In this document: positions 5,101 through 64,000 of the stretch, piece after piece | Layout of the letters: every line of letters starts with the position of its first letter | How positions within the stretch are numbered: position 1 is the first letter of the stretch | NCBI RefSeq assembly: GCF_037042905.1 | Contig: NC_087250.1 | Coordinates: 15,502,001 to 15,566,000, forward strand | Reading direction: 5' to 3' | From: Lytechinus pictus | Lineage: Eukaryota | DNA: 64,000 nt | The notes under the pieces: generated by a model | Told to the model about the DNA's origin: nothing | Seen by the model: the letters and a program-made list of their open reading frames with translations, nothing else | Database searches by the model: none | Position numbers and translations under genes: made by a program

Positions 5101-7289
5101 ATATGTTATACTGTGCAGTGACTGGTGTTAAGTACTACTTTACTACTACTTACACGAATATAGTAGCGTCGGACTGTACGCGCACAGAAGCTGACTCCGG
5201 GATCTTTCGGAGGGGATCAATGGTTGCAGTTACCGATTATCTGCAAGTGCAAAGAAAATTCCACTGTAGATTTTAGGTCCTAAATATGCAGCTTATAAGT
5301 ACTGTTCCAGATCACTAGATATTCTGGAATTTAATTGTAATATCCAGTCCAAATTCTGCCAGATTCTTCAAGTTCAAAATTGAAGGAAGCAGACTACACA
5401 GACATGACAGAAGGAGTCCGGCGTCACGACTAATTCTGCGCATCAGAATAGTATGGTATTTTTAAATAGGCACATTTGATGCTTGTATTTCCTTCTTCAA
5501 TTTCTTCTAGTTATGTGACGTTAGGCCTATGACATATCTCGTACTTACTGTGAAAGGCCTAGCCAGCTGCAAAGGACGAGGGCGTTTCTGGAAATTCTGG
5601 TCTTGAACTACATTTTTTTCTTGTTTTTCTCTTTTAATTTCTATATTAATCGACACATTAATTTTGCATCCCCCGGTGCATGCAGCCTCTCTATTCTACC
5701 CCATCTTTATTTTTGTTTTCCCCTTAGACTTAGTTCCTCTTTCCCTTCCCATTATTTTCCTTCTCTCTCGATTTCTTTTCCCCTTATTGCTGGGGGATAC
5801 CAAGGGTGACATGGATAGACAAGCAAACTTACTTGATCGACCCCCCCCCCTGGCCTTGGCCCCATTGGAAATTATGCGAGTAGTCGTCTGTATATCATTA
5901 TCAATTCTCCAATTAACCAGTTTCTAACGTTCTCAACACTGGGTATATTATGCCGGGATATTATGTTGACTGTCAAACAAATATCCAACAAACTATAGTT
6001 TCCAACAACTCTCCAATAAATTATTCCAATTACGCTGTCCACGTTGTGCCATTGTCCGTTGTTCAACAACTCTCCATCAAACTAGTTTCCAACTTTGTCA
6101 ACGTTGTGCCATTGTCGACTGTCCAACAAATCTCCAAGAAAATAGTTTCCAACGTTGTTCCTTTGTCGGTTGTTCAGCAACTCTCCATCGAACTACTAGT
6201 TTCCGACGTAGTCAACGCTGTGCCTTTGTTGGCTGTTCAACACCTATCCAATCAAACACGCGTTTCCAACGTTGTGACGTTGTTGGCTGTCCAACAAATC
6301 TCCAACACACTAGTTTCCAATGTTGTGCCATTGTCTGTTGTTCAACAACTTTCCAACGTTGCCAACGTTGTGTCATCGTCGACTATCCTACTGATCTCCA
6401 ATCTACCAGTTTCCAACGTTGTGCCAGTGTCAGTTGTTCAACAACTTTCCATCTAACTAGTTTCTAGCTTTATCAACGTTGTGTCATTGTATACTATCTA
6501 ACTAATCTCCAATCTACCAGTTTCCAACGCTGTGCATGCCATCGTCGACTATCCAACAAATCTCCATCGAACTAGTTTCTAGCCTTTGACAACGTTGTGC
6601 CATAGTTGGTTGTTCAACAACTTTCCATCGAACTAGTTTCCAACGTTGCCAACCTTGTGTCATCGTCGACTATCCAACTAATCTCCAACCTACTAGTTTC
6701 CATCGTTGTGCCATTGTCGACTGTCCAACAACTCTCCAACTAACAAGTTTCCAACGTTGCCAACGTCGTGTCATTGTTGATTGTTCAACAACTTTCCAGC
6801 GAACTAGTTTCCAACGTTGCCAACGTTGTGCATTTGCTGGCTGTCAACAACTATCCAATCAAACGTGTCTCCAACGTTGTGACATTGTCGACTGTCCAAC
6901 AACTCTCCAACTTACTAGTCTCCAACGTTGTGCCATTGTCGACAGTCCAACAAATCTCCAACAAACTAGTTTCCAACTTTGTCAACGTTGTGCCATTGTC
7001 GGTTGTTCAACAACTTTCCAGCGAACTAGTTTCCAACGTTGTGCCATTGCTGGCTGTTCAACAGCTATCCAATCAAACGTGTTTCCAACGTTGTGACATT
7101 GTCGACTGTCCAACAACTCTCCAACTAACAAGTTTCCAACGTTGCCAACGTCGTGTCATTGTTGATTGTCCATCATCTTTCCATCAAACTAGTTTCCAAC
7201 GTCGATTCAACGTTAATCCATCAAGTTTTTCCAACGTCCAACGACTTTCAAGTTTCCAACGTGGAGCCAACGTTGGCTTGTTACCTGGG
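2186..7289. mobile_element. Non-autonomous CMC/EnSpm-like DNA transposon, family A copy 1
   Basis: TIR CCCAGGTAACAA...TTGTTACCTGGG; 2-bp TSD TG; AACGTT-rich subterminal arrays; colinear second copy at 18189-23087. Confidence 0.85.
5920..7280. repeat. AACGTT-rich subterminal tandem array (~51/60-bp units)
   Basis: Repeating unit like GTTTCCAACGTTGTGCCATTGTCGACTGTCCAACAAATCTCCAACAAACTA. Confidence 0.85.
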
Positions 7290-7387
7290 TGGTTACTTAT
7301 TCTATATCCAGAAGCAGTGGCGGGCCGTGACCCGGAGGAGACAATTGATTGGAGCGGCACTGTATTGTATGTGAACAACACTGTGCC

Positions 7388-13166: not shown

Positions 13167-13190
13167 ATGGAATTCCATCTCGGAGACAAC

Positions 13191-13225
13191 GGCTCTTTTC
13201 AGAGCCACTCAATTTTTAAGAAAGA
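13191..13225 (+). terminator. Histone 3' stem-loop and downstream element
   Basis: GGCTCTTTTCAGAGCC (13191-13206) followed by AAGAAAGA (13218-13225). Confidence 0.9.
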
Positions 13226-13781
13226 AACAGTTGATTTGGCTCTCCCAAATATCACATTTACCACCTTCTAGCCACTTTTGTGCCACCTCATTGCCACTAG
13301 CAGGCCGCTGCTACCAACTTACCTGCCACTTCCATGCCACCAGCTAGTCGCGGGTGGCCCTCCTCCAATGCCACCAGCATGCAACTTCCATGTTACCTAA
13401 CAACTACTCCTTTTTAGCCAACAAGCAGCCGCAGGTGGCCCACATCTATACCGCTTGTAAACTGCCAAGTGGCCCACCAGCATAAGCATCTGCAAGCCCG
13501 GCTGCGGCCCACCAGAAGCCCTCTCACGTGGGCCGCAGAAACAGCCACCTTTAGGACGCTGGTGGGCCACCTGGAATGGCTAGCTGGGTTTTCTTTCCAG
13601 TCATTGGTATGCCATTCGAAATAATGTAATAAGTAGGCCTAATATCCTGCCTTATGTTCATTTGATTTTTTCTTAACAACCGGGGTCGTCTCCTATCCAG
13701 TTAAACATGCTAATCAAATCCTTATCTCTTTTAAAAACTCACCTGTTTCATATAGTAAACGGTAAACGCATGATTTGTACA

Positions 13782-15105: not shown

Positions 15106-15612
15106 TTTGTACAACGCTTCCGTCCGGCTGTTATTACTCAAGCATATCTTTTGCTTAAATCGTTTGCCGCTGCATTTTCTTATGCTTACATGTTGCATTT
15201 ATGTCTAAATGTTTATATTGCTTCTGTGTTCTAGTTGTGTCACATTGCAATGTATTTTATTGCCATATTACGTATTACGATTATGTATTGTAAATTAATT
15301 TTTACTTTACAATAAATGCAAAAACTCAAGTGGGGTGTGTGTGTGGGGGGTGCGGTAGGATCGTTACCGGTTAAGGATCGGTCCCACTGCACTTGCAGAT
15401 GCAAAAAGGATGTAAAACGTAAAAAATTTGTTCACAATTTGTCAATTGATGATAAGTGAGTCCCGACTGACTGTATGTGTGTGTCTGTGGGTAGGGTGAG
15501 TGTGGATGGTGTGTATATATGTGAGTCTGAGTAATGGTGCTTGGTTAGCTCGTCACCATTTTTGTTGTCTTTATAGAACTATATAGGTGGTAAACGATCC
15601 GTGGGCTTAATT

Positions 15613-16000
15613 ATGGATTCCCCATTACCATCAGCAACAACCTCCTCCTCCTGGACGAATGGTTCTATTCCACTCTACGCAGTCACACTGGCCATCCTTC
15701 TGCTGTTCTTCTTGAAACGAACTTCCGGCAAAACGAAAGGGCGCCCTCTTCCTGGTCCAAGAGGTCTTCCAATCATAGGAAGCACTCTCGAGTTTCTCTT
15801 CTCTAAACTGGACCCGAGGGAGATCCACGAGAAATGGGCGAAGGAATACGGCGAAATATTCATGTACAAGCTGTTGGGATCTCGTTTTGTTTTCCTGAAC
15901 AACCCTGATATCATCCGCGAGGTTTATGCAGCTGGGAATCATGTCCACGACCGAATCCCTATCCTTCTCTGCAACAAAGCCCTTGGAAGATCCAACACAG
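15613..16000 (+). CDS. Cytochrome P450 (clan 2-like) exon 1
   Basis: ATG 15613; N-terminal membrane anchor; proline-rich LPGPRGLPIIG; phase-1 donor CAG|GTAATG. Confidence 0.9.
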
Positions 16001-16615
16001 GTAATGGTGTAGTTACATACATGGCATTTTCTCCTGTGATAGTTGCTCCCACTGAAAATAGACACCTCAAGCCACGCATAATCCAGAGATACAAAACCAA
16101 CCCTCACATGACTCACCCTTTGGTAATCTTAATCCTCACATAATTCTGAACCAAAAACCCTCTCACATCAACTCTAACCCTTCCCTTATACATACATAGA
16201 TATATGCGGAGGAGCATTTTTCATGTGAGAAAATGCGGTGTCACCGCGCAATCACAGATGCAAACCGTCTGCGAATCAGTCATTGGTATGCCATTCGAAA
16301 TAACGTATGCTGTGTGTTCAGGTTCACAAAATTCTTAGGGTTCAGTATATATATATATATATAATAGCCACTTTCCGTTTGGAGGAACGAAATGTGATGA
16401 CTGACGTGAACAGCATGCGTTGCCAACGCATCACGGTCCCCACTTGTGCTTGGTGATCTCACATTCGCACTAGATTGTGGTTTGTAGTGTAGATTTAGTT
16501 TTCAGGATATGCCATATCAAGGTTTGTCCTTTGGACCTTGGTATTGTTGGATACAACACCGAAGGAAAAAACCCGCCATAACTCTTACCCTATAACACGA
16601 ACTCTATTTTTTCAG

Positions 16616-18188: not shown

Positions 18189-21100
18189 CCCAGGTAACAA
18201 TACAGCGTTGGACAAACGTTGGGAATTTTTTCCCAACGTTGCCTCAACGTTGGTAAGCAACGTTGCATCATCGATAGAAGTGCACGTCCATGCATCGTCA
18301 GACCAACAACATTTCCAACGTCAGTTCAACGTTGTCCACCATCAATGCTCCAACGTTGGTATAATGTCGGCTGAGTCATTAATAACAGCGTTGCTGCAAC
18401 GTTGATGGGCGACGTTGAAGCAGCGATGGACGTGCACATACATACATCGTCAGTCCAACTATGTTTACAACGTTGGTTCAACGCTGTCCAGCAACAATGC
18501 TCCAACGTTGTCTGGCAACATTGCTCCAACATTGTTATAAAGTTGTCACAACGTTGCTCCAACATTGCTCCAACGTATGGCAGTAATTAACAAAACATTA
18601 ATTGGTTTCAAGGTGAAGTCCACCATTACAACTCTACACTCTAATCTTTATCATCATGTCTTATCCTATCCTAAAATCCTACATCCTAATCCTTCATCCT
18701 ATTCCTATCATCCTACACCTATCCACTGAATCCTGTCAGTGACTCCTATATATAGAGCAACTTTGCTATACTTGGCAGAATACAGTTAATATCATTTTCC
18801 ACACTTAACCTTGAAAATTTCACTTAGAGTAATATGTTTTGATTATAAATGATATGGTAATGGAGCCACATACTTTTCTGAAACTTTTCATGGTGGAAAT
18901 ATTGAATAAACGTAAATACTCTCATTATTATAGCAATATTACCTAAAATTTTGGTCATTTACTGATGTAATGAATATTCATGAGTGCTTAATCATTATGT
19001 CCAGATGAGGCAGGTATGGCAGCGTTTGTCCAATGTTGGTCCAACGTTGGGTGACGTTAATCCAACGTTGGTCTAATGTTGGTCCAATGTTGATGGAAAG
19101 TTGATTCAACGTTAGTCCAATGTTAGTCCAACGCTGGCGTAATGTTCCAATGTTTCAATGTTTGTCTAATATCGGTTAAATGTTGTTGTAACGTTGATTC
19201 TTTGTTGGTCTAATTTTAAACAAATCCAACGATGCGCCATCTCCATCAAACAGTTTTCAACACTGTGCCATCATCATCTGTAACCTGTTCATGATTCTGT
19301 CAAAAAAACATTACAACTATTATTACAACTATTCATTTCTTTTCGTTCTTTCTGTTACAAGTCTCTTCACATAATTAAGAGGAATCAAGAGAATTACATG
19401 TGATATTTATCGAGGCCTTTGTAGCATTCAAACTTTTTTGACATCCTCTTTTTCTCAAACAAGACTAATACCCCAAAAACATATGCATATGTATTAAGAA
19501 TTAAGATGTATTACATTTTCTTGCGAGTTGCAATCTCTGTTTCTGTCTACAATTGTTTAATGACTCGGTATGCAATGCCAATTGCAACGTCAGTAATCAT
19601 CACAAAAACTCACATGTGTAATTGCAGTCTCTCAGTATTAACAAAATCTAAAAAGGAGGTCGCGTAACTTGGCCTCACTCAGAGTAACGTAGCTACTGCC
19701 TACTGTAACTAAAGAGCGCCTCTTTTTTTATTAAGATAGAGGTCAACTGATATCTCAATATGCATGGCCATGGCCTAGTCTCGCTCCTGCCATAACTCTT
19801 AAATGATATTTCAGCGTCAAATGTAAGCATGCCTCACGTAGCAACTACAGGTTTGACTGCAGTTGGAAAACACTCGGTCCTGGCTAGGCCATGCAGGACC
19901 GACCAGGTCAATTCCAGGCAGCGTATAATAAATAAGGCAGGAATGCCAGGTAGCAAGTCATTGGGTGATTTCAAGTACGGTGTACGGTGTTGAGAGCGCG
20001 AAAGGGCCGCTGCTGAACTGAGCTCCAACACCAAGCGTAAAATTATTTTTCATTGAAATGTATTAAAACTCTAATGATTTGCTCTTATCTTAAATGTAAA
20101 AGATAATTTTACGGAGATGGTTCGTCGTGTTCGCCCCCTGTTCGTGAGCTACAGTTCATCAACACCAACACTGAACTTTAATTTAAAAAAATCACGATTC
20201 TCCCAATCCCTGGGGGTCGGTGTTGCTGAATGAGGAAATTGCATGTAGATCATCAACACCATGCAGCCGCAGTGCAGTGTTCAACACAAACTGCCGGAAA
20301 TACATCATATTTTCCGAGGTCAATCTCAACACCAGCCTGATTCAAGTAGGTGTTGTCACAACACCAACACCAGATTTCAACACTGTACTTGAAATTATTG
20401 AAATCTCCCAATGACTGTTGCCTTGCCCTTGGTATCGCATACTCGTTCCCACTCACGTATTGCGAGGTTAGTATTAGTCACTCACACAAGTACGAGGTCG
20501 AGGTTAGTTATATGTTTACTGTGCAGTGACTGTTGTTAAGTAATTACACGAAAATACTAGCGTCGGACTGTACGCGCACATAAGCTGACTCCGGGATCTT
20601 TCGGAGGGGATCAACGGTTGCAGTTACCGATTATCTGCAAGTGCAAAGAAAATTCCACTGTAGATTGTAGGTCCTAAATATGCAACTTAGAGGTACTGTT
20701 CCAGATCACTAGATATTCAGGAATTTAATTGTCTATATCCAGTCCAAATTCTGCCAGATTCTTCAAGTTCAAAATTGAAGGAAGCAGACTACACAGAAGA
20801 AGGAGTCTGACGTCGACGCGTCGCGACTAATTCTGCGCATCAGAATAGTATGGTATTCTTAAATAGGCACATTTGATGCTTGTATTTCCTTCTTCAATTT
20901 CTTCTAGCTATGTGACGGTAGGCCTATATATATCTCGTACTTGCTGTGAGAGGCCTAGCCAGCTGCAAAGGACGATGGCGTTTCTGGAAATTCTGGTCTT
21001 GAACTACATTTGTTTTCTTGTTTTTCTCCTTTATTTTCTATATTAATCGACATTTGCATCCCCCGGTGCATGCAGCCTCTCTATTGATCGACCAAATCTT

Positions 21101-23087
21101 TATTTATGTTTTCCCCTTAGTTTTAGTTCCTCTTTCCCTTCCCATTATTTTCCTTCTCTCTCCATTTCTTTTCCCCTTATTGCTGGGGGATACCAAGGGT
21201 GACATGGATAGAAGAGCAAACTTACTTGATCGACCCCTTGGCCCCATTGGAAATTATGCGAGTAGTCGTCTATATACCAATTCTCCAATGAGCCAGTTTC
21301 TAACATTCTCAACACTGTGTATATTATGCCGGGATATTATGTTGACTGTCAAACAAATATCCAACAAACTATAGTTTCCAACATTGTGTCAATGTTAACT
21401 GTCAACAACTCTCCAATAAACTATTCCAATTCCGCTGTCCACTTTGTGCCATTGTCCGTTGTTCAACAACTCTCCATCAAACTAGTTTCCAACTTTGTCA
21501 ACGTTGTGCCATTGTCGACTGTCCAACAAATCTCCAAGAAAATAGTTTCCAACGTTGTTCCGTTATCGGTTGTTCAGCAACTCTCCATCGAACTAGTTTC
21601 CGACGTAGTCAACGCTGTGCCTTTGTTGGCTGTTCAACAACTATCCAATCAAACACGTTTCCAACGTTGTGACATTGTTGGCTGTCCAACAAATCTCCAA
21701 CACACTAGTTTCGAATGTTGTGCCATTGTCTGTTGTTCAACAACTTTCCAACGTTGCCAACGTTGTGTCATCGTCGACTATCCTACTGATCTCCAACCTA
21801 CCAGTTTCCAACGTTGTGCCAGTGTCAGTTGTTCAACAACTTTCCATCTAACTAGTTTCAAGCTTTATCAACGTTGTGTCATTGTCTACTATCTAACTAA
21901 TCTCCAATCTACCAGTTTCCAACGTTGTGCCATCGTCGACTATCCAACAAATCTCCATCGAACTAGTTTCTAGCTTTGAGTGTGTATGTGTATATTTGAG
22001 TTTTATCAGACGTGTATCAATCAGATATGATTATTTACGTCTGGGACCGACCTTTAACGTCACCATCCGAAAGACGTGACCAGGGCTCGAACCTCGAACC
22101 TCTGCATCAATTTGTAACTTCCCCACGTAGCTTGGATTACAGGCGCACGCCACAACGCCCAGTCAACGTTGTGCCAACAACCAACTATGGCACAACGTTG
22201 TGCCATAGTTGGTTGTTCAACAACTTTCCATCGGACTAGTTTCCAACGTTGCCAACCTTGTGTTATCGTCGACTATCCAACTAATCTCCAACCTACTACT
22301 AGTTCCCAACGTTTTGCCATTGTCGACCGTCCAACAAATCTCCAACAAACTAGTTTCCAACTTTGTCAACGTTGTCTCATTGTCGGTTGATCAACAACTT
22401 TCCATCGAACTGGTTTCTAACGTTGCCAACGTTGTGTTATTGTTGGCTGTTCAGCAACTATCCAATTAAACATGTTTCATCGTTATGCCATTGTCAACTG
22501 TCCAACAACTCTCCAACTAACAAGTTTCCAACGTTGCCAACGTCGTGTCATTGTTGATTGTTCAACAACTTTCCAGCGAACTAGTTTCCAACGTTGCCAA
22601 CGTTGCAAACGTTGTGCCTTTGCTGGCTGTTCAACAACTATCCAATCAAACGTGTCTCCAACGTTGTGACATTGTCGACTGTCCAACAACTCTTCAACTT
22701 TCTTGTTTCCAACGTTGTGCCATTGTCGACCGTCCAACAAATCTCCAACAAACTAGTTTCCATCTTTGTCAACGTTGTGCCATTGTCGGTTGTTCAACAA
22801 CTTTCCAGCGAACTAGTTTCCAACGTTGCCAACGTTGTACCTTTGCTGGCTGTTCAACAACTATCCAATCAAACGTGTTTCCAACGTTATGACATTGTCG
22901 ACTCTGTCCAACAACTCTCCAACTAACAAGTTTCCAACGTTGCCAACGTCATGTCATTGTTGATTGTCCATCATCTTTCCATCAAACTAGTTTCCAACGT
23001 CGATTCAACGTTAATCCATCAGGTTTTTCCAACGTCCAACGACTTTCAAGTTTTCAACGTAGAGCCAACGTTGGCTTGTTACCTGGG
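18189..23087. mobile_element. Non-autonomous CMC/EnSpm-like DNA transposon, family A copy 2 (P450 intron 2)
   Basis: Same TIR CCCAGGTAACAA...TTGTTACCTGGG; 2-bp TSD TA; colinear with 2186-7289 with indels. Confidence 0.85.
21979..22162 (-). mobile_element. Candidate 7SL(SRP RNA)-derived SINE
   Basis: Absent from copy 1 of the host element. Minus strand: CTGGGCGTTGTGGCGTGCGCCTGTAATCCAAGCTACGTGGGG head, GGTTCGAGCCC B box, CA-rich tail. Confidence 0.7.
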
Positions 23088-53064: not shown

Positions 53065-54309
53065 GTACGTGTGTTATGTTTTAATTTGCTTAGCCTTTAG
53101 CCAAGGTTCTTGGTGCTGTTATGTCCCTTAACACGGCCTATATGGATTCGCCTGAAAGCGTAGATCAATCGTGCAATGAGCGGGGATGAGCGCCGTGGCT
53201 CGGTCTGGCGATCACTGCAATTAGTGCACTCTGCTTTAGTCTATTTTCGAACCATGTTTTGGCATGACAAGCAGAGAACTTGTCCAAAGGCTATATTTTG
53301 CTATTTACTCAGTCAACTGAAGCACTTACAAGTATAATAAGCCAAATGTTAACCCACCATTGCATAGAATTCATATGTGCAACAACTGGGTCCCATGACA
53401 TTCATGCTTTGCCCAATCATCTGTACCAGTATGCTATCAGCCAATCAGAACGATTTTGGTAGTTTTAAACTGTCATAGCAAATTTGATATTATAACAAGA
53501 TTTGTGAAACGGGCCTCAGATATTTGATTTACAGTTTTACCCGTCGGGATAAAATTAATTTGTAATTCAGTAATGAAATATCAAACTTTAAATAATTCAT
53601 TAAAAAATATAGTGAGTAATTTTTCTGTTAAAATGCTATAATCACCACGCAGACGAGTGTTTTTTAAAGCCGATAATCTTTTGCCAATATACTTTTAATA
53701 ACAAAAAACAGCCTTTGTCGAATATCGGTTAATCAAAGTAGCAGTATCGTCCTGTGCCGGCCGCACAAAAACGTTGTTAGCCTAACGGAGCGCTAACAGT
53801 AATCCCACTATCCCAGTCACATCTTTCGGATTGTGAAGTCAAAACATTTATTTCAATGTGTAAGTAATGCATTATTGTAACATTAGGCATCGCCGCAACA
53901 TTACCGATTGTAACATGGCCTCTGTTAGCGCATTGTTAGCTCTAACAACGTTTCTATGCGGTCAGTACTGCATTCTGGACAATCGACATATTTTTAATTT
54001 TTCGTCCAGTACGAATCTTCAGAAAATCTTCTTTCCCTTCCCGGTCTACCAACTTTCGACAAAAACCTCTCAGATGTCCATTGTCATTTGACTTGCATTT
54101 TCAAAGAAATTGATGCGTTGTAGAAAGCGTCTGCGTATTAATTGCGAAAGTATGCTAATACTTAGCAGCAGGTATAATTGGTAAGGCTAGACTAAGAAGG
54201 CACCCAGGTAAAGTTGTACATAAAATGCCTCAAATATTTTATTAATACCATTTCGTGGCTAGATGAGTCAGATCAATACAACTCTCAATATGACCTTGTT
54301 TGCCTTCAG

Positions 54310-61599: not shown

Positions 61600-64000
61600 T
61601 ATCCATTTTATTGTTAAACCCATTGTACATATTTGTAATCTGTCCTTTTTATCTGGTAAGGTTCCTATGAATTTCAAAGTAGGAAAAATTATACCCATAT
61701 TTAAGAAAGGGGATCCCCATATATTTTCTAACTATCGCCCTATAACTTTGCTCCCTTGTTTTTCTAAAATATTAGAAAAATGGATTTACAATAGGGTTTT
61801 TAATCATATAAATAAATATAATCTCCTTGATGACTCTCAGTACGGTTTTAGAAAACAATACTCCTGTGCACATGCTTTAATTGACCTTCATGATTACATC
61901 CAAAATAAATTAACAAACAAAGTTCATACATTAGGCTTATTTCTTGATCTATCTAAAGCGTTTGATGTCATCAACCATGATATTCTCCTCTGTAAATTAC
62001 AGTTTTTTGGTATACGTGGTGTACAGTGGTTTAAGAATTATTTGAGTAATCGTTTCCATTTCACATGTTATAATAATTTTGTTTCCAAAATATGAAGAGG
62101 ATCCAGTGTGGAGTCCCACAGGGCTCTTTACTGGGTCCTCTCCTTTTCTTGATCTATATAAATAATCTGAGCTCTTCTTCTTGATACCGTGGACCATGAG
62201 CTGCTTTTAAAGAAATTAACTTGCATTGGTTGTAGTAAGAGGACTATCACTTGGTTCAAATCATATTTATTTGATCGACAACAAGTGACACAATTTAAAG
62301 GAGCCAAATCGCACCCTTCAATCGTCAAATTAGGCGTGCCACAAGGGTCAATTCTAGGTCCCCTTTTATTTTCAATATATGTTAATAGTTTACCTGAATG
62401 TATTCATGAAGGTATTATAGATATGTACGCTGACGACACGACACTTACCGTCAGTGCGAATGATGCGACAGTTTTGGAAGAAAAATTAACTGTTGCATTA
62501 AACAAGGTCATGGCATGGATTAAAGATAATCAGCTCGTCCTCAACACTGAAAAAACTTGTGTCATGATAATAGGTTCTCGTGCTAATCTCAGGAAAATAG
62601 ATTCTTTCACGATTTTGTTAAACGGTGATTTGATAAATAGAGTTCAATTCACCAAATGCTTAGGAGTTTTGATAGATGAAGAACTGAAATGGTCAAAACA
62701 AATAGAAAATGTATGTAAACTTACTCAGAAAAGCATTGGCATAATAAAGAGAGCGAAAAGTTCTTTGCCTGTGCAGTCCTTAAAGTTGCTTTATAACAGT
62801 TTAGTGTTGCCAAGATTTGATTACTGTTCTGCTGTATGGTCGAATAGATTTCAATCCCATACAATTAAGCTGCAAAAAATTCAGAAGAGGGCTGCAAGAA
62901 TTATATTGAACAAGACATACGACACACCGTCGGCTGATTTGTTCACAAGTCTTAAATGGATGACACTAGACAAACGATTTGAGCTCAGTCGCGTTTTGAT
63001 GATATTTAAATGTGTCCACAGTTTAGCACCTTCTTACCTTCAGGTAAACTTAACCAATCCAAATGATGTACATGAACATCATACCAGACAGAGAGACAGT
63101 GGCTATTTACGCGTGCCCAAGTTTCGCACTGATTGTTATAAGTGTAGTCCAATCGTATCTTCAATATTTAAATGGAATAAGCTTGATAATTCAATTAGAA
63201 CATCTCCTTCTGTCATTTCATTTAAGAGAATGTTTAAAAGAACTTGTAATTTATAAATAACTTGCGGAACATCCACTGTTGTGCTTATTTTGTGTTAGCA
63301 TGACCTTGATGATTTGGTGTATATTATCAGTATTTTCAAGATGTCCTTCTTAATTAATTTGATTTATTGATATTTTATTATACGTCAAACGAGTGCCCGT
63401 CTGCGTTTTGTTTGCTGCTAAGTTTGTTAATGTTTCGTTTTACATTCAAATCCTAATGTGAATCTTAATGATGTAACATTCTGTACATACGTTATGCATT
63501 TTGTAAATATGTTTATTGTTATTCAGGGCCTCATGGAAGACCACTCCTTATTGGTGAATGGGCTACCCTGTCAAAATATCAGAAATAAATAAATAAATAA
63601 AATAAAAATCCTTTTTTCGTTTTATACTGTTTGCCGACGATACCAACTTAATTGCATGTCATAAAGATTTCAATAAATTAATATTACAGGTAAATAGAGA
63701 ATTAGAAAATGTTATACAATGGTTTGATGCTAATGAATTAATTATAAACAATGACAAAACGTGTGTATTATATTTTAATAGAAAATCCCACCCATATAAT
63801 TGTAATAATATTAGAATACTTATAAACCATGTTAATTTGAATGTGTGCACTTAAGTTAAATTTTTATGAATAATTCTTGATGATACTCTATCTTTCCAGG
63901 ACCATCGACAATATATTGCAAACAAAATATCTAAAAACATTGGTATCCTCCGTAAATTACGTGTATCCCTACCTCAAAATGTATTATTTATGTTGTATAA
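61600..64000 (+). mobile_element. Decayed CR1/L2-group LINE RT fragment, split by a younger LINE
   Basis: NYRPITLLPCFSKILE, QYGFR, FLDLSKAFD before ~62179; resumes with ILFADDTNL after ~63609; runs off the window. Confidence 0.8.
62180..63608 (+). mobile_element. 5'-truncated younger CR1/L2-group LINE
   Basis: Open frame to 63256 with GVPQGSILGPLLF and YADD; CAGGG...CCCTG hairpin; (AAAT)n tail. Confidence 0.88.

Follow-up and report, generated by a model that had tools for sequence, protein, structure and literature searches.

The element and its insertion site

The window analysed here is a stretch of 64,000 nucleotides, C6:15502001-15566000 of an 811.7-Mb assembly of 368 contigs that was searched as a whole and in which no COX1 was found. 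On its minus strand, positions 21979-22162 hold a 184-nt element that opens CTGGGCGTTGTGGCGTGCGCCTGTAATCCAAGCTACGTGGGG, includes GGTTCGAGGTTCGAGCCC and closes ...AAAACTCAAATATACACATACACACT, exactly as quoted in a preliminary description of this DNA. Very probably, this is a copy of a recently active short interspersed element (SINE), a non-autonomous retroposon of ~175 nt plus tail that is built from separate modules, carries a head taken from 7SL RNA and would be mobilised by a long interspersed element (LINE). The SINE is a mosaic of at least four parts. From 5′ to 3′, these would be the 5′ domain of the host's own 7SL RNA (nt 1-~42), a linker with a canonical tRNA-type B box, a small body hairpin and, before the terminal AAAACTCAAAT(AC)n, a two-tier 3′ hairpin (Table 1).

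The element lies in one of two diverged copies of a ~2-kb repeat, which is rich in ~55-bp tandem units. Copy 2 (20979-21979 plus 22192/3-23088) contains the SINE, and direct alignment finds an empty site between 6588 and 6589 in copy 1 (5583-6589 plus 6589-7290), which bears out the earlier statement that the ~184-bp segment is confined to copy 2. The two copies are 83-91% identical: positions 20979-21979 match 5583-6589 at 91.4%, and the part from 22192/3 onward matches 6589-7202 at 83% or, in another repeat register, 6414-7290 at 89%. The filled site consists of the 184-nt element and 29 further bases, a direct-plus-inverted duplication of the adjacent target that finishes a perfect ~57-nt palindrome at 22168-22224. 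The palindrome is not found in the paralogous copy at 6589, and a relaxed Rfam scan flagged it on both strands as a generic hairpin (a MIR2600-like match). Because the window SINE is only ~2-3% away from other SINE copies, compared with 9-17% between the host copies, it moved after the host copies had diverged, as had been proposed; the paralogous site is empty.

Table 1. Features of the SINE copy and of its insertion site, in window coordinates
Feature	Position	Strand	Basis
SINE copy, full length, 184 nt, long-form subfamily	21979..22162	-	Sequence; 97-98% identity to other copies
SINE head, nt 1-42, 5′ end of host 7SL (helices 2, 3 and 4 plus UGUAAU turn)	22121..22162	-	Alignment with 7SL; Rfam model for signal recognition particle (SRP) RNA
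A-box-like element GGCGTTGTGG, nt 4-13	22150..22159	-	Position of 7SL box A in Kojima 2020; promoter role putative
B box GGTTCGAGCCC, nt 70-80	22083..22093	-	Perfect fit to the tRNA-type consensus; not alignable to 7SL
Additional GGTTCGA unit, long-form marker, directly before the B box	22094..22100	-	17/40 sampled copies
Body hairpin GTCAC...GTGAC	22059..22080	-	29/35 identity to the interior of a repeat family with terminal inverted repeats (TIRs)
3′ two-tier hairpin CAGACGT ... ACGTCTG, inner stem TAATCA/TGATTG	22007..22043	-	Fold; alignment with the (AAC)n family
Tail: ATAAAACTCAAAT, then imperfect (AC)n	21979..22006	-	Sequence
29 surplus bases at the SINE 5′ junction	22163..22191	.	Direct plus inverted duplication of the flanking target
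Pre-insertion (empty) site in the paralogous host copy	6588..6589	.	Direct alignment

A dispersed family with retroposon features

A whole-genome DNA search with the 184-nt query yielded 1812 first-look candidates, and the 40 of them that were scored gave 46 matches at 89-100% identity, mostly full length at 97-98%. A 27-nt motif from the head, allowing up to two mismatches, occurs 1307 times in the genome (672 forward, 635 reverse), and a 27-nt motif from the body 1543 times; the reversed patterns used as controls gave 0 matches each. The element is therefore not a single-copy sequence, a case that the preliminary description had named as fatal to its proposal, and we are dealing with a young SINE family of roughly 1300-1800 copies.

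The family was described from 40 exact head-motif matches, taken in order of position from contigs C1 and C2 irrespective of similarity, with six matches left out, three of them in 7SL genes and three coinciding with or adjoining copies already collected. The same element was present from head to tail in 39 of them, and the remaining copy (L076) is split by an unrelated insertion, its other half being L095. Divergence from the majority consensus averages 1.9% (median 1.8%, range 0-5.7%, n=39). The extra GGTTCGA that defines the long form, carried by the window copy and by 17 of the 40 sampled ones, is also found in the older-looking copies L038 and L039.

At 38 of the 40 sampled loci there is a single SINE copy in unrelated flanks; of the other two, one holds a head-to-tail array of three copies and one a second, tail-only fragment. 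Among the 30 best-scoring loci, four have at least two copies, three of these being head-to-tail arrays. Arrays of 2-4 copies were seen at L005 (C19:10865242-10865949), L066, L013, L015 and L039, some with an identical short spacer between the copies, which suggests tandem amplification of the SINE plus its target-site duplication (TSD) after insertion. The loci L039 and L040 have common flanks and contain two copies and one copy, respectively. The flanks common to L039/L040, L046/L075 and L009/L042 show that these SINEs were copied within larger repeats.

The tails consist of AAAACTCAAAT followed by (AC)n, the length of which varies between copies. TSDs were scored in 37 of the 40 copies, two without a recognisable tail and L076 being excluded. 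Exact TSDs of at least 5 nt were found in 16/37, of at least 6 nt in 9/37 and of at least 8 nt in 4/37, compared with 10.7%, 3.6% and 0.1% in a control that paired 5′ and 3′ flanks from different loci (n=1798). The TSDs are short, variable and sometimes absent. Both signs of retroposition proposed for checking at the outset, shared ends and TSDs, are thus in evidence, with 39/40 sampled copies being the same full-length element and the TSDs enriched over the controls. A second sample comprised 20 body-motif matches on C1 without an exact head motif: 15 are full length or nearly so with point-mutated heads, four are 5′-truncated or interrupted, and one is internally rearranged. More 5′-truncated copies start at many different points, several with their own TSDs. 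The tails, TSDs and truncations fit LINE-mediated target-primed reverse transcription, a process that would leave short variable TSDs and frequent 5′ truncations.

Regarding the bases that precede CTGGGCG in the 40 sampled copies (L041-L080), there is an A at -1 in 30/40, an A at -2 in 23/40 and a C at -3 in 18/40. This CAA bias before the 5′ end could reflect a target preference, microhomology at the 5′ junction, or a transcript start 1-2 nt upstream.

The arrays, the several copies with common flanks and the position of the window copy inside a duplicated repeat would also suit a sequence that is not a retroposon at all, being instead a unit of a satellite or tandem array, or part of the interior of a DNA transposon or miniature inverted-repeat transposable element (MITE) that spreads together with its host element. 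Such an origin is very unlikely in view of the 38/40 sampled loci with one copy in unrelated flanks and the enrichment of variable TSDs. Moreover, the 3′ simple repeats vary in length, 5′ truncations occur at many points, the SINE contains no TIRs, and the paralogous site in the window is empty.

The 7SL-derived head

Seven full-length 7SL genes, three on C10, three on C1 and one on C12, score 272-283 bits with the Rfam model Metazoa_SRP. The other 18 scored matches of the model, which include the window copy, reach 31.9-34.9 bits, and the three of them that were inspected (L038-L040) are SINE heads. The host 7SL gene starts ACCGGGCGTTGTGGCGTGCGCCTGTAATCCAGCTACTTGGAGG. Aligned with the 7SL gene at L031, the window copy is identical in 34/37 columns over its first 36 nt, in 39/43 over 42 nt and in 46/62 (74%) over 60 nt, the identity being concentrated in SINE nt 1-42. 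Within the first 36 nt the two differ by C-to-T at CpG and by one inserted A, which is missing from copy L038. In the relaxed Rfam scan (361 nt), Metazoa_SRP matches at 22069-22163 (minus strand) with 32.7 bits and E 5.6e-7, the well-aligned part being approximately the first 48 of 299 model positions; the Alu-derived mir-1268 family also matches the head, with 32.8 bits. Judged from these alignments, the first ~42 nt of the SINE are derived from the host's own 7SL RNA. The comparison with vertebrate 7SL from which the likeness had first been noticed understated it, the head being nearly identical to this genome's own 7SL genes.

The similarity does not extend into the body. Local alignment of the SINE body with the whole 7SL gives a score of 15, compared with 15.3+-2.1 for shuffled sequences, 174/300 of which reach it; in a collinear test against 7SL nt 36-115 the score is reached by 426/1000 shuffles, and against the 3′ part of 7SL by 870/1000. 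A larger share of 7SL in the body was considered and rejected, since the likeness seen by eye around the B box and TTCGGATGG is not above that of shuffles. With no similarity past nt ~42, the SINE therefore lacks the 3′ end and the box B region of 7SL, and its B-box region does not align with the 7SL counterpart.

A B box of tRNA type might point to a diverged tRNA as the source of the head, its likeness to 7SL being due to chance. This is effectively refuted: 34/37 columns are identical to the host 7SL gene from the first bases on, ARAGORN finds 0 tRNA genes in the window, no tRNA family is among the nine Rfam matches at E<=10, and the reversed-pattern control gave 0 matches as opposed to 1307 for the head motif. 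A head recognisable as tRNA, the mark of SINE2 elements, is not present, and no tRNA fits better than 7SL. Regarding the 7SL/tRNA chimera proposed in the preliminary description, the 7SL head and the non-7SL body stood, and the tRNA side came down to the fit of the B box.

SINEBase defines a SINE as a short interspersed non-tandem repeat with at least 60% identity to tRNA, 5S or 7SL over at least 60 nt (PMC3531059; here and below, published work is taken from those portions of the cited papers that deal with the families and constructs compared). The family conforms to this definition. At ~175 nt plus tail it is well below 1 kb, it is interspersed with a minority of its copies in tandem, its copy number is far above 100, and it has 74% identity to the host 7SL.

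The three tandem 7SL genes on C10 are each preceded by a diverged SINE copy in the same orientation, which ends ~35 nt before the 7SL start. With the gene starting at 1501, these copies are at L031:878-1049 and 1291-1462, L035:1295-1466 and L036:1316-1466; L031 has two of them via a ~413-nt local duplication. They are 81-88% identical to the consensus and have an 8-nt deletion in common. In the C10 cluster the SINE displaces whatever lay upstream of -37 of 7SL, and no SINE copy lies within 1.5 kb on either side of the C1 and C12 genes. The C10 copies were rejected as the birthplace of the SINE: they form a derived variant, marked by an 8-nt deletion of its own, that was duplicated along with the genes, and more likely represent one insertion than the origin.

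The SRP covariance model places the SINE head in helix 2, helix 3, the UGUAAU turn and helix 4 (UCC/GGA). Helix 3 is identical to that of the host 7SL gene. In helix 2, the 7SL gene has ACC/GGU where the SINE has ACU/AGU, with both sides changed (C-G to U-A), the CpG transition at position 3 being matched by a G-to-A change on the opposite strand. The head thus begins at the 7SL 5′ end and aligns with the 5′ fold of the Alu domain (helices 2, 3 and 4 plus the U-turn), both of which characterise SINE1 elements such as Alu, B1, Tu, Urop and Ebu1-1, and the earlier statement that this fold is kept was corroborated, helix 2 having been retained through a two-sided change.

The isolated 5′ domain of SRP Alu RNA binds SRP9/14, as the crystallographic literature describes. 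The 5′ domain of the SINE, folded as Alu-domain helices 2-4, may bind SRP9/14 and bring the RNA to ribosomes. Alternatively, the SINE could be exactly as described but with a 7SL head that serves only as a piece of an RNA polymerase III promoter, the fold being passively inherited and no SRP9/14 or ribosome step taking place. SINEs with tRNA heads and tails recognised by a stringent LINE need no Alu domain and move without one. Moreover, the near identity of the head to the 7SL gene means that retention of the fold could reflect youth alone, minimum free energy (MFE) folding does not favour the Alu-like fold of the head, and the 7SL 3′ strand that clamps the Alu domain is absent from the SINE. 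Nevertheless, helix 2 was preserved through a two-sided change, the 7SL part ends near the boundary of the 46-nt domain that Alu reportedly needs for mobility and that is reported to be bound by SRP9/14 (PMC11760393), and the independent 7SL SINEs treated by Kojima 2020 (PMC7245038) all retain the 5′ Alu domain. We therefore regard a head that is a promoter piece and nothing else as rather unlikely, and as a view to be taken seriously.

The promoter-like features themselves are readily located. The B box GGTTCGAGCCC, which fits all specified positions of the tRNA-type consensus, is at nt 70-80 in the long form (window 22093-22083) and at nt 62-72 in the short form. The A-box-like GGCGTTGTGG (nt 4-13) sits where Kojima 2020 puts box A of human and hagfish 7SL. 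There is no TTTT run in the element. These three features are indications of transcription by RNA polymerase III. The B box, the non-7SL body and the CA-rich tail listed in the preliminary description are each present.

Mobilisation and relation to other SINEs

A profile of the SINE, run over ~290 kb of collected sequence, gave a weak match in L024 (E 0.0012) that is the 3′ end of a second repeat family, ending in (AAC)n (L024:2380-2600; also L130-L137 and L139). This family has at least 317 first-look candidates, of which 40 were scored at 84-100% identity, and it is at least ~550-950 nt long with internal ~115-nt tandem repeats. Ten copies were inspected, seven of the main form and three of a variant, and 1 to 3 kb upstream of each contains no reverse-transcriptase-like or other convincing open reading frame (ORF). 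All 10 match SINE nt ~109-161, with E values of 1.9e-6 to 7.7e-4 each.

The tails of the SINE and of the (AAC)n family fold into one common two-tier hairpin. In an alignment of 11 sequences (A1; four SINE, seven (AAC)n family), the 12 common pairs are formed in 93.9% of cells, compared with 19-48% when the partners are slid by 1-3 columns. The hairpin co-varies: comparison of the families shows two pairs with changes on both sides, A-U/G-C in the lower stem and A-U/U-A in the upper stem, and one pair is changed on one side only (U-A vs U-G), with the loops AAA and UAUC invariant. These count as no more than two compensatory events, since only two lineages are compared; no difference between the families breaks a pair, and the unpaired cells are changes in single copies. 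In addition, for many SINE and (AAC)n-family copies the truncation point is precisely the hairpin base. The 3′ hairpin and the simple-repeat tail are likely to be a recognition module for the reverse transcriptase of a stringent LINE. Several copies of the (AAC)n family have a common 3′ flank, the result either of copying inside some larger repeat or of insertion at a single preferred site, and in L024 a SINE sits at a similar point of the ~115-nt tandem-repeat unit of that family.

Regarding the body, SINE nt ~66-100, which include the GTCAC...GTGAC hairpin, resemble the interior of a ~215-nt MITE-like repeat with inverted termini. This repeat has at least 446 first-look candidates, its copies are 85-89% alike, and one of them lies at 53770-53880 of the window. 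With a profile E of only 0.026, the likeness may reflect a common module or chance. A sister family with a tRNA head was sought and rejected, none being found among the 20 body-motif matches without an exact head or by the profile search over the ~290 kb of collected sequence.

Taken together, the modules suggest how the SINE would work. The A-box-like element of 7SL origin and, 48-55 nt further downstream, the B box would guide RNA polymerase III to initiate at nt 1 or immediately before it, and, the SINE having no T4 terminator, transcripts would end in flanking DNA. At the ribosome, to which the 5′ domain may bring the RNA, the reverse transcriptase of a stringent LINE would recognise the 3′ hairpin and the simple-repeat tail, and target-primed reverse transcription would follow; which LINE, and of which type, is conjectural. 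The family itself may have originated by template switch or recombination that joined 7SL nt 1-~42 to an older retroposon RNA.

Several results weigh against this account. The window contains no SRP match at the Rfam gathering threshold, the head reaching 32.7 bits compared with 70, and of the agreement with the SRP model suggested at the outset the match itself stood (E 5.6e-7), its score falling short. The covariation in helix 2 is a single event, and the helix requires an A at -1 of the RNA, a base found in 30/40 copies and often inside the TSD; AATCAA at L041 is an example, which can also be read as 5′-junction microhomology. Where the model matches the SINE body to helix 5 (3′ strand), several pairs are non-standard; because of this poor pairing and of a body without 7SL similarity, we take the full Alu-domain clamp to be absent. 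In nearest-neighbour folding of the SINE head, the Alu-like structure reaches -5.3 kcal/mol, compared with -13.1 kcal/mol for the MFE structure; since MFE folding misses the Alu-like fold of a genuine 7SL fragment too, thermodynamic folding is uninformative here. No exact TSD of at least 5 nt was found in 21 of the 37 scored copies, and the window copy has an untidy 5′ junction and, owing to the duplication there, no clean TSD. Finally, the partner LINE was not found. Four filtered patterns that combined non-SINE upstream sequence with tail or hairpin motifs (8, 23, 69 and 75 matches) retrieved only SINE and (AAC)n-family members, as indel variants or 5′-truncated copies, and a set of 21 LINE 3′ regions gave 0 matches to the SINE profile at E<=10.

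The latter were the 3′ regions of 16 long-ORF copies and of five more of one family, most of which end in poly(A); Pfam RVT_1 had 12239 candidates in the genome, 150 of which were scored. The LINE 3′ end with the SINE tail that the preliminary description had envisaged therefore did not appear among them. One candidate was a LINE that has an ORF of 1008 aa, ends in (TCAAA)n and is 29/41 identical to the SINE tail (score 17 vs 8.9+-1.4 for shuffles, reached by 1/1000). It is not counted as the partner because ~200 windows were tested, the tail repeat is different and there is no nhmmer match at E<=10. This young LINE family (L119, L125-L129, e.g. the C2:55614101 region) has a ~650-nt 3′ untranslated region (UTR) with an internal (AC)7 run, and six copies of this 3′ UTR are nearly identical. 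A reverse-transcriptase-like ORF 1.8 kb upstream of the truncated SINE copy L108 was also rejected, as the copy's own TSD lies between the two.

Independent lineages of 7SL-derived SINEs are described by specialists as extremely rare, the searchable literature naming those of supraprimates, hagfish and a shrew mole (PMC7245038, PMC13023118). SINE1-1_EBu (Ebu1-1) of the hagfish Eptatretus burgeri, presented as the first evident 7SL SINE outside Euarchontoglires (Kojima 2020, PMC7245038), contains 96 nt of 7SL, RTE-derived parts and an (AAC)n tail, has 2363 full-length copies and originated as a chimera in which a tRNA SINE took part. It resembles the present SINE in being young, in its similar copy number (2363 there, roughly 1300-1800 here), in joining a 7SL head to an unrelated body, in having a simple-repeat tail rather than poly(A), in a mobilisation that here, too, would be of the stringent, non-L1 type, and in being read as a chimera of 7SL with an older retroposon. 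The two differ in that SINE1-1_EBu retains box B within its 96 nt of 7SL, whereas the present SINE has ~42 nt and a B box that is not 7SL-derived. In addition, the 3′ boundary of the central 7SL deletion in SINE1-1_EBu is that of other 7SL SINEs (Vassetzky 2026, PMC13023118), whereas the present SINE has no 3′ 7SL part, and the hagfish family has an identified RTE partner and a bipartite tail, in contrast to the (AC)n tail found here and the search that yielded no partner LINE.

Urop of the shrew mole was added to the 7SL SINEs by Vassetzky et al. 2026 (PMC13023118), in which all described families are derived from 7SL after a ~183-nt central deletion. Like Urop and the Alu, FLAM, B1 and PB1 elements of Euarchontoglires, the present SINE starts at 7SL nt 1 and comprises helices 2-4 of the 5′ Alu domain with the A-box region. 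Those families are made up entirely of 7SL sequence, carry a poly(A) end and rely on L1 (PMC13023118), whereas this one lacks a 3′ 7SL part and combines its head with a body and B box of foreign origin, a structured 3′ hairpin and an (AC)n tail. Two traits of the described SINE1 families are accordingly missing: the element retains no 7SL 3′ end (about nt 267-299), and the B box does not come from the internal box B of 7SL (nt 76-86). The present SINE keeps less of 7SL than any described family.

Its closest counterpart in this respect is an engineered one. The preprint by Moldovan, Yin and Moran (PMC11760393) reports a 46-nt 5′ Alu domain that Alu requires for its retrotransposition and with which SRP9/14 associates, and the 7SL part of the present SINE is of similar size, ~42 nt, or 47-48 with helix 2 closed. 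The 46-nt domain is a laboratory deletion construct, studied in human cells and driven by L1, whereas the present family is natural, belongs to another animal, has a different tail and is known from its sequence. With the tRNA-derived SINE2 elements, including SINE2_SP of sea urchin (cited in Matetovici et al. 2016), the family has in common a modular, jigsaw-like build, a B box, a 3′ stem-loop with a simple-repeat tail, short variable TSDs and 5′ truncations; the head, in contrast, is 7SL and not tRNA. It is best classed as a 7SL-headed SINE of a kind in which the 5′ Alu domain is joined to a foreign B box, body and LINE-type 3′ hairpin.

No description of the family was found in the searchable literature, by topic (7SL, SINE, invertebrate, echinoderm) or with the 27-mers, a search that left Repbase, Dfam, SINEBase and supplements outside its scope; an existing description, which the preliminary description had allowed for, was thus not encountered there. 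The family could be real and already be held in a curated repeat library such as Repbase or Dfam, or in the supplement of a genome paper. Automated classifiers would probably call the head SINE/Alu-like, as the match to the Alu-derived mir-1268 suggests. On the other hand, a Repbase curator called the hagfish family the first evident SINE1 outside Euarchontoglires in 2020 (PMC7245038), and in the relevant portion of their paper of February 2026 the authors of SINEBase state that 7SL SINEs are otherwise unknown outside supraprimates and hagfish (PMC13023118). Neither 27-mer is printed in the searchable literature, and among the papers listed none links 7SL SINEs with echinoderms or invertebrates. 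We think it unlikely that the family has already been catalogued.

It is possible, and we propose it tentatively, that the family represents a further independent birth of a 7SL-headed SINE, the first outside vertebrates if the host is an echinoderm, using only the ~46-nt SRP9/14-binding domain and the hairpin of a stringent LINE. If so, the engineered minimal Alu domain would have its counterpart in nature, and hijacking of SRP9/14 at the ribosome would be a general route to success for SINEs, independent of L1, of poly(A) and of the Alu domain's 3′ half. An additional origin in a distant animal would add an evolutionary replicate, which is informative since retention was limited to the 5′ domain of the Alu fold. 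Both ends of 7SL are kept in all 7SL SINEs described in the cited papers, a pattern read as selection on the whole Alu domain; a successful family with helices 2-4 only argues that it is the 5′ domain that counts, in line with the deletion study in human cells (PMC11760393). Being young, with ~2% divergence, and present or absent between paralogous sites, the family may still be active, and it could provide both a marker system and a test bed for dependence on SRP9/14 in combination with a non-L1 LINE.

Other features of the window lie apart from the SINE. An Rfam histone 3′ UTR stem-loop at 13186-13231 (+) scores 40.7 bits, over its gathering score, and no intact histone ORF is obvious just upstream among the ORFs of at least 60 aa. 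A cytochrome P450-like exon is found at 15601-16143 (+; E 1.6e-07) and a reverse-transcriptase fragment at 62189-63256 (+; Pfam RVT_1, E 1.4e-18).

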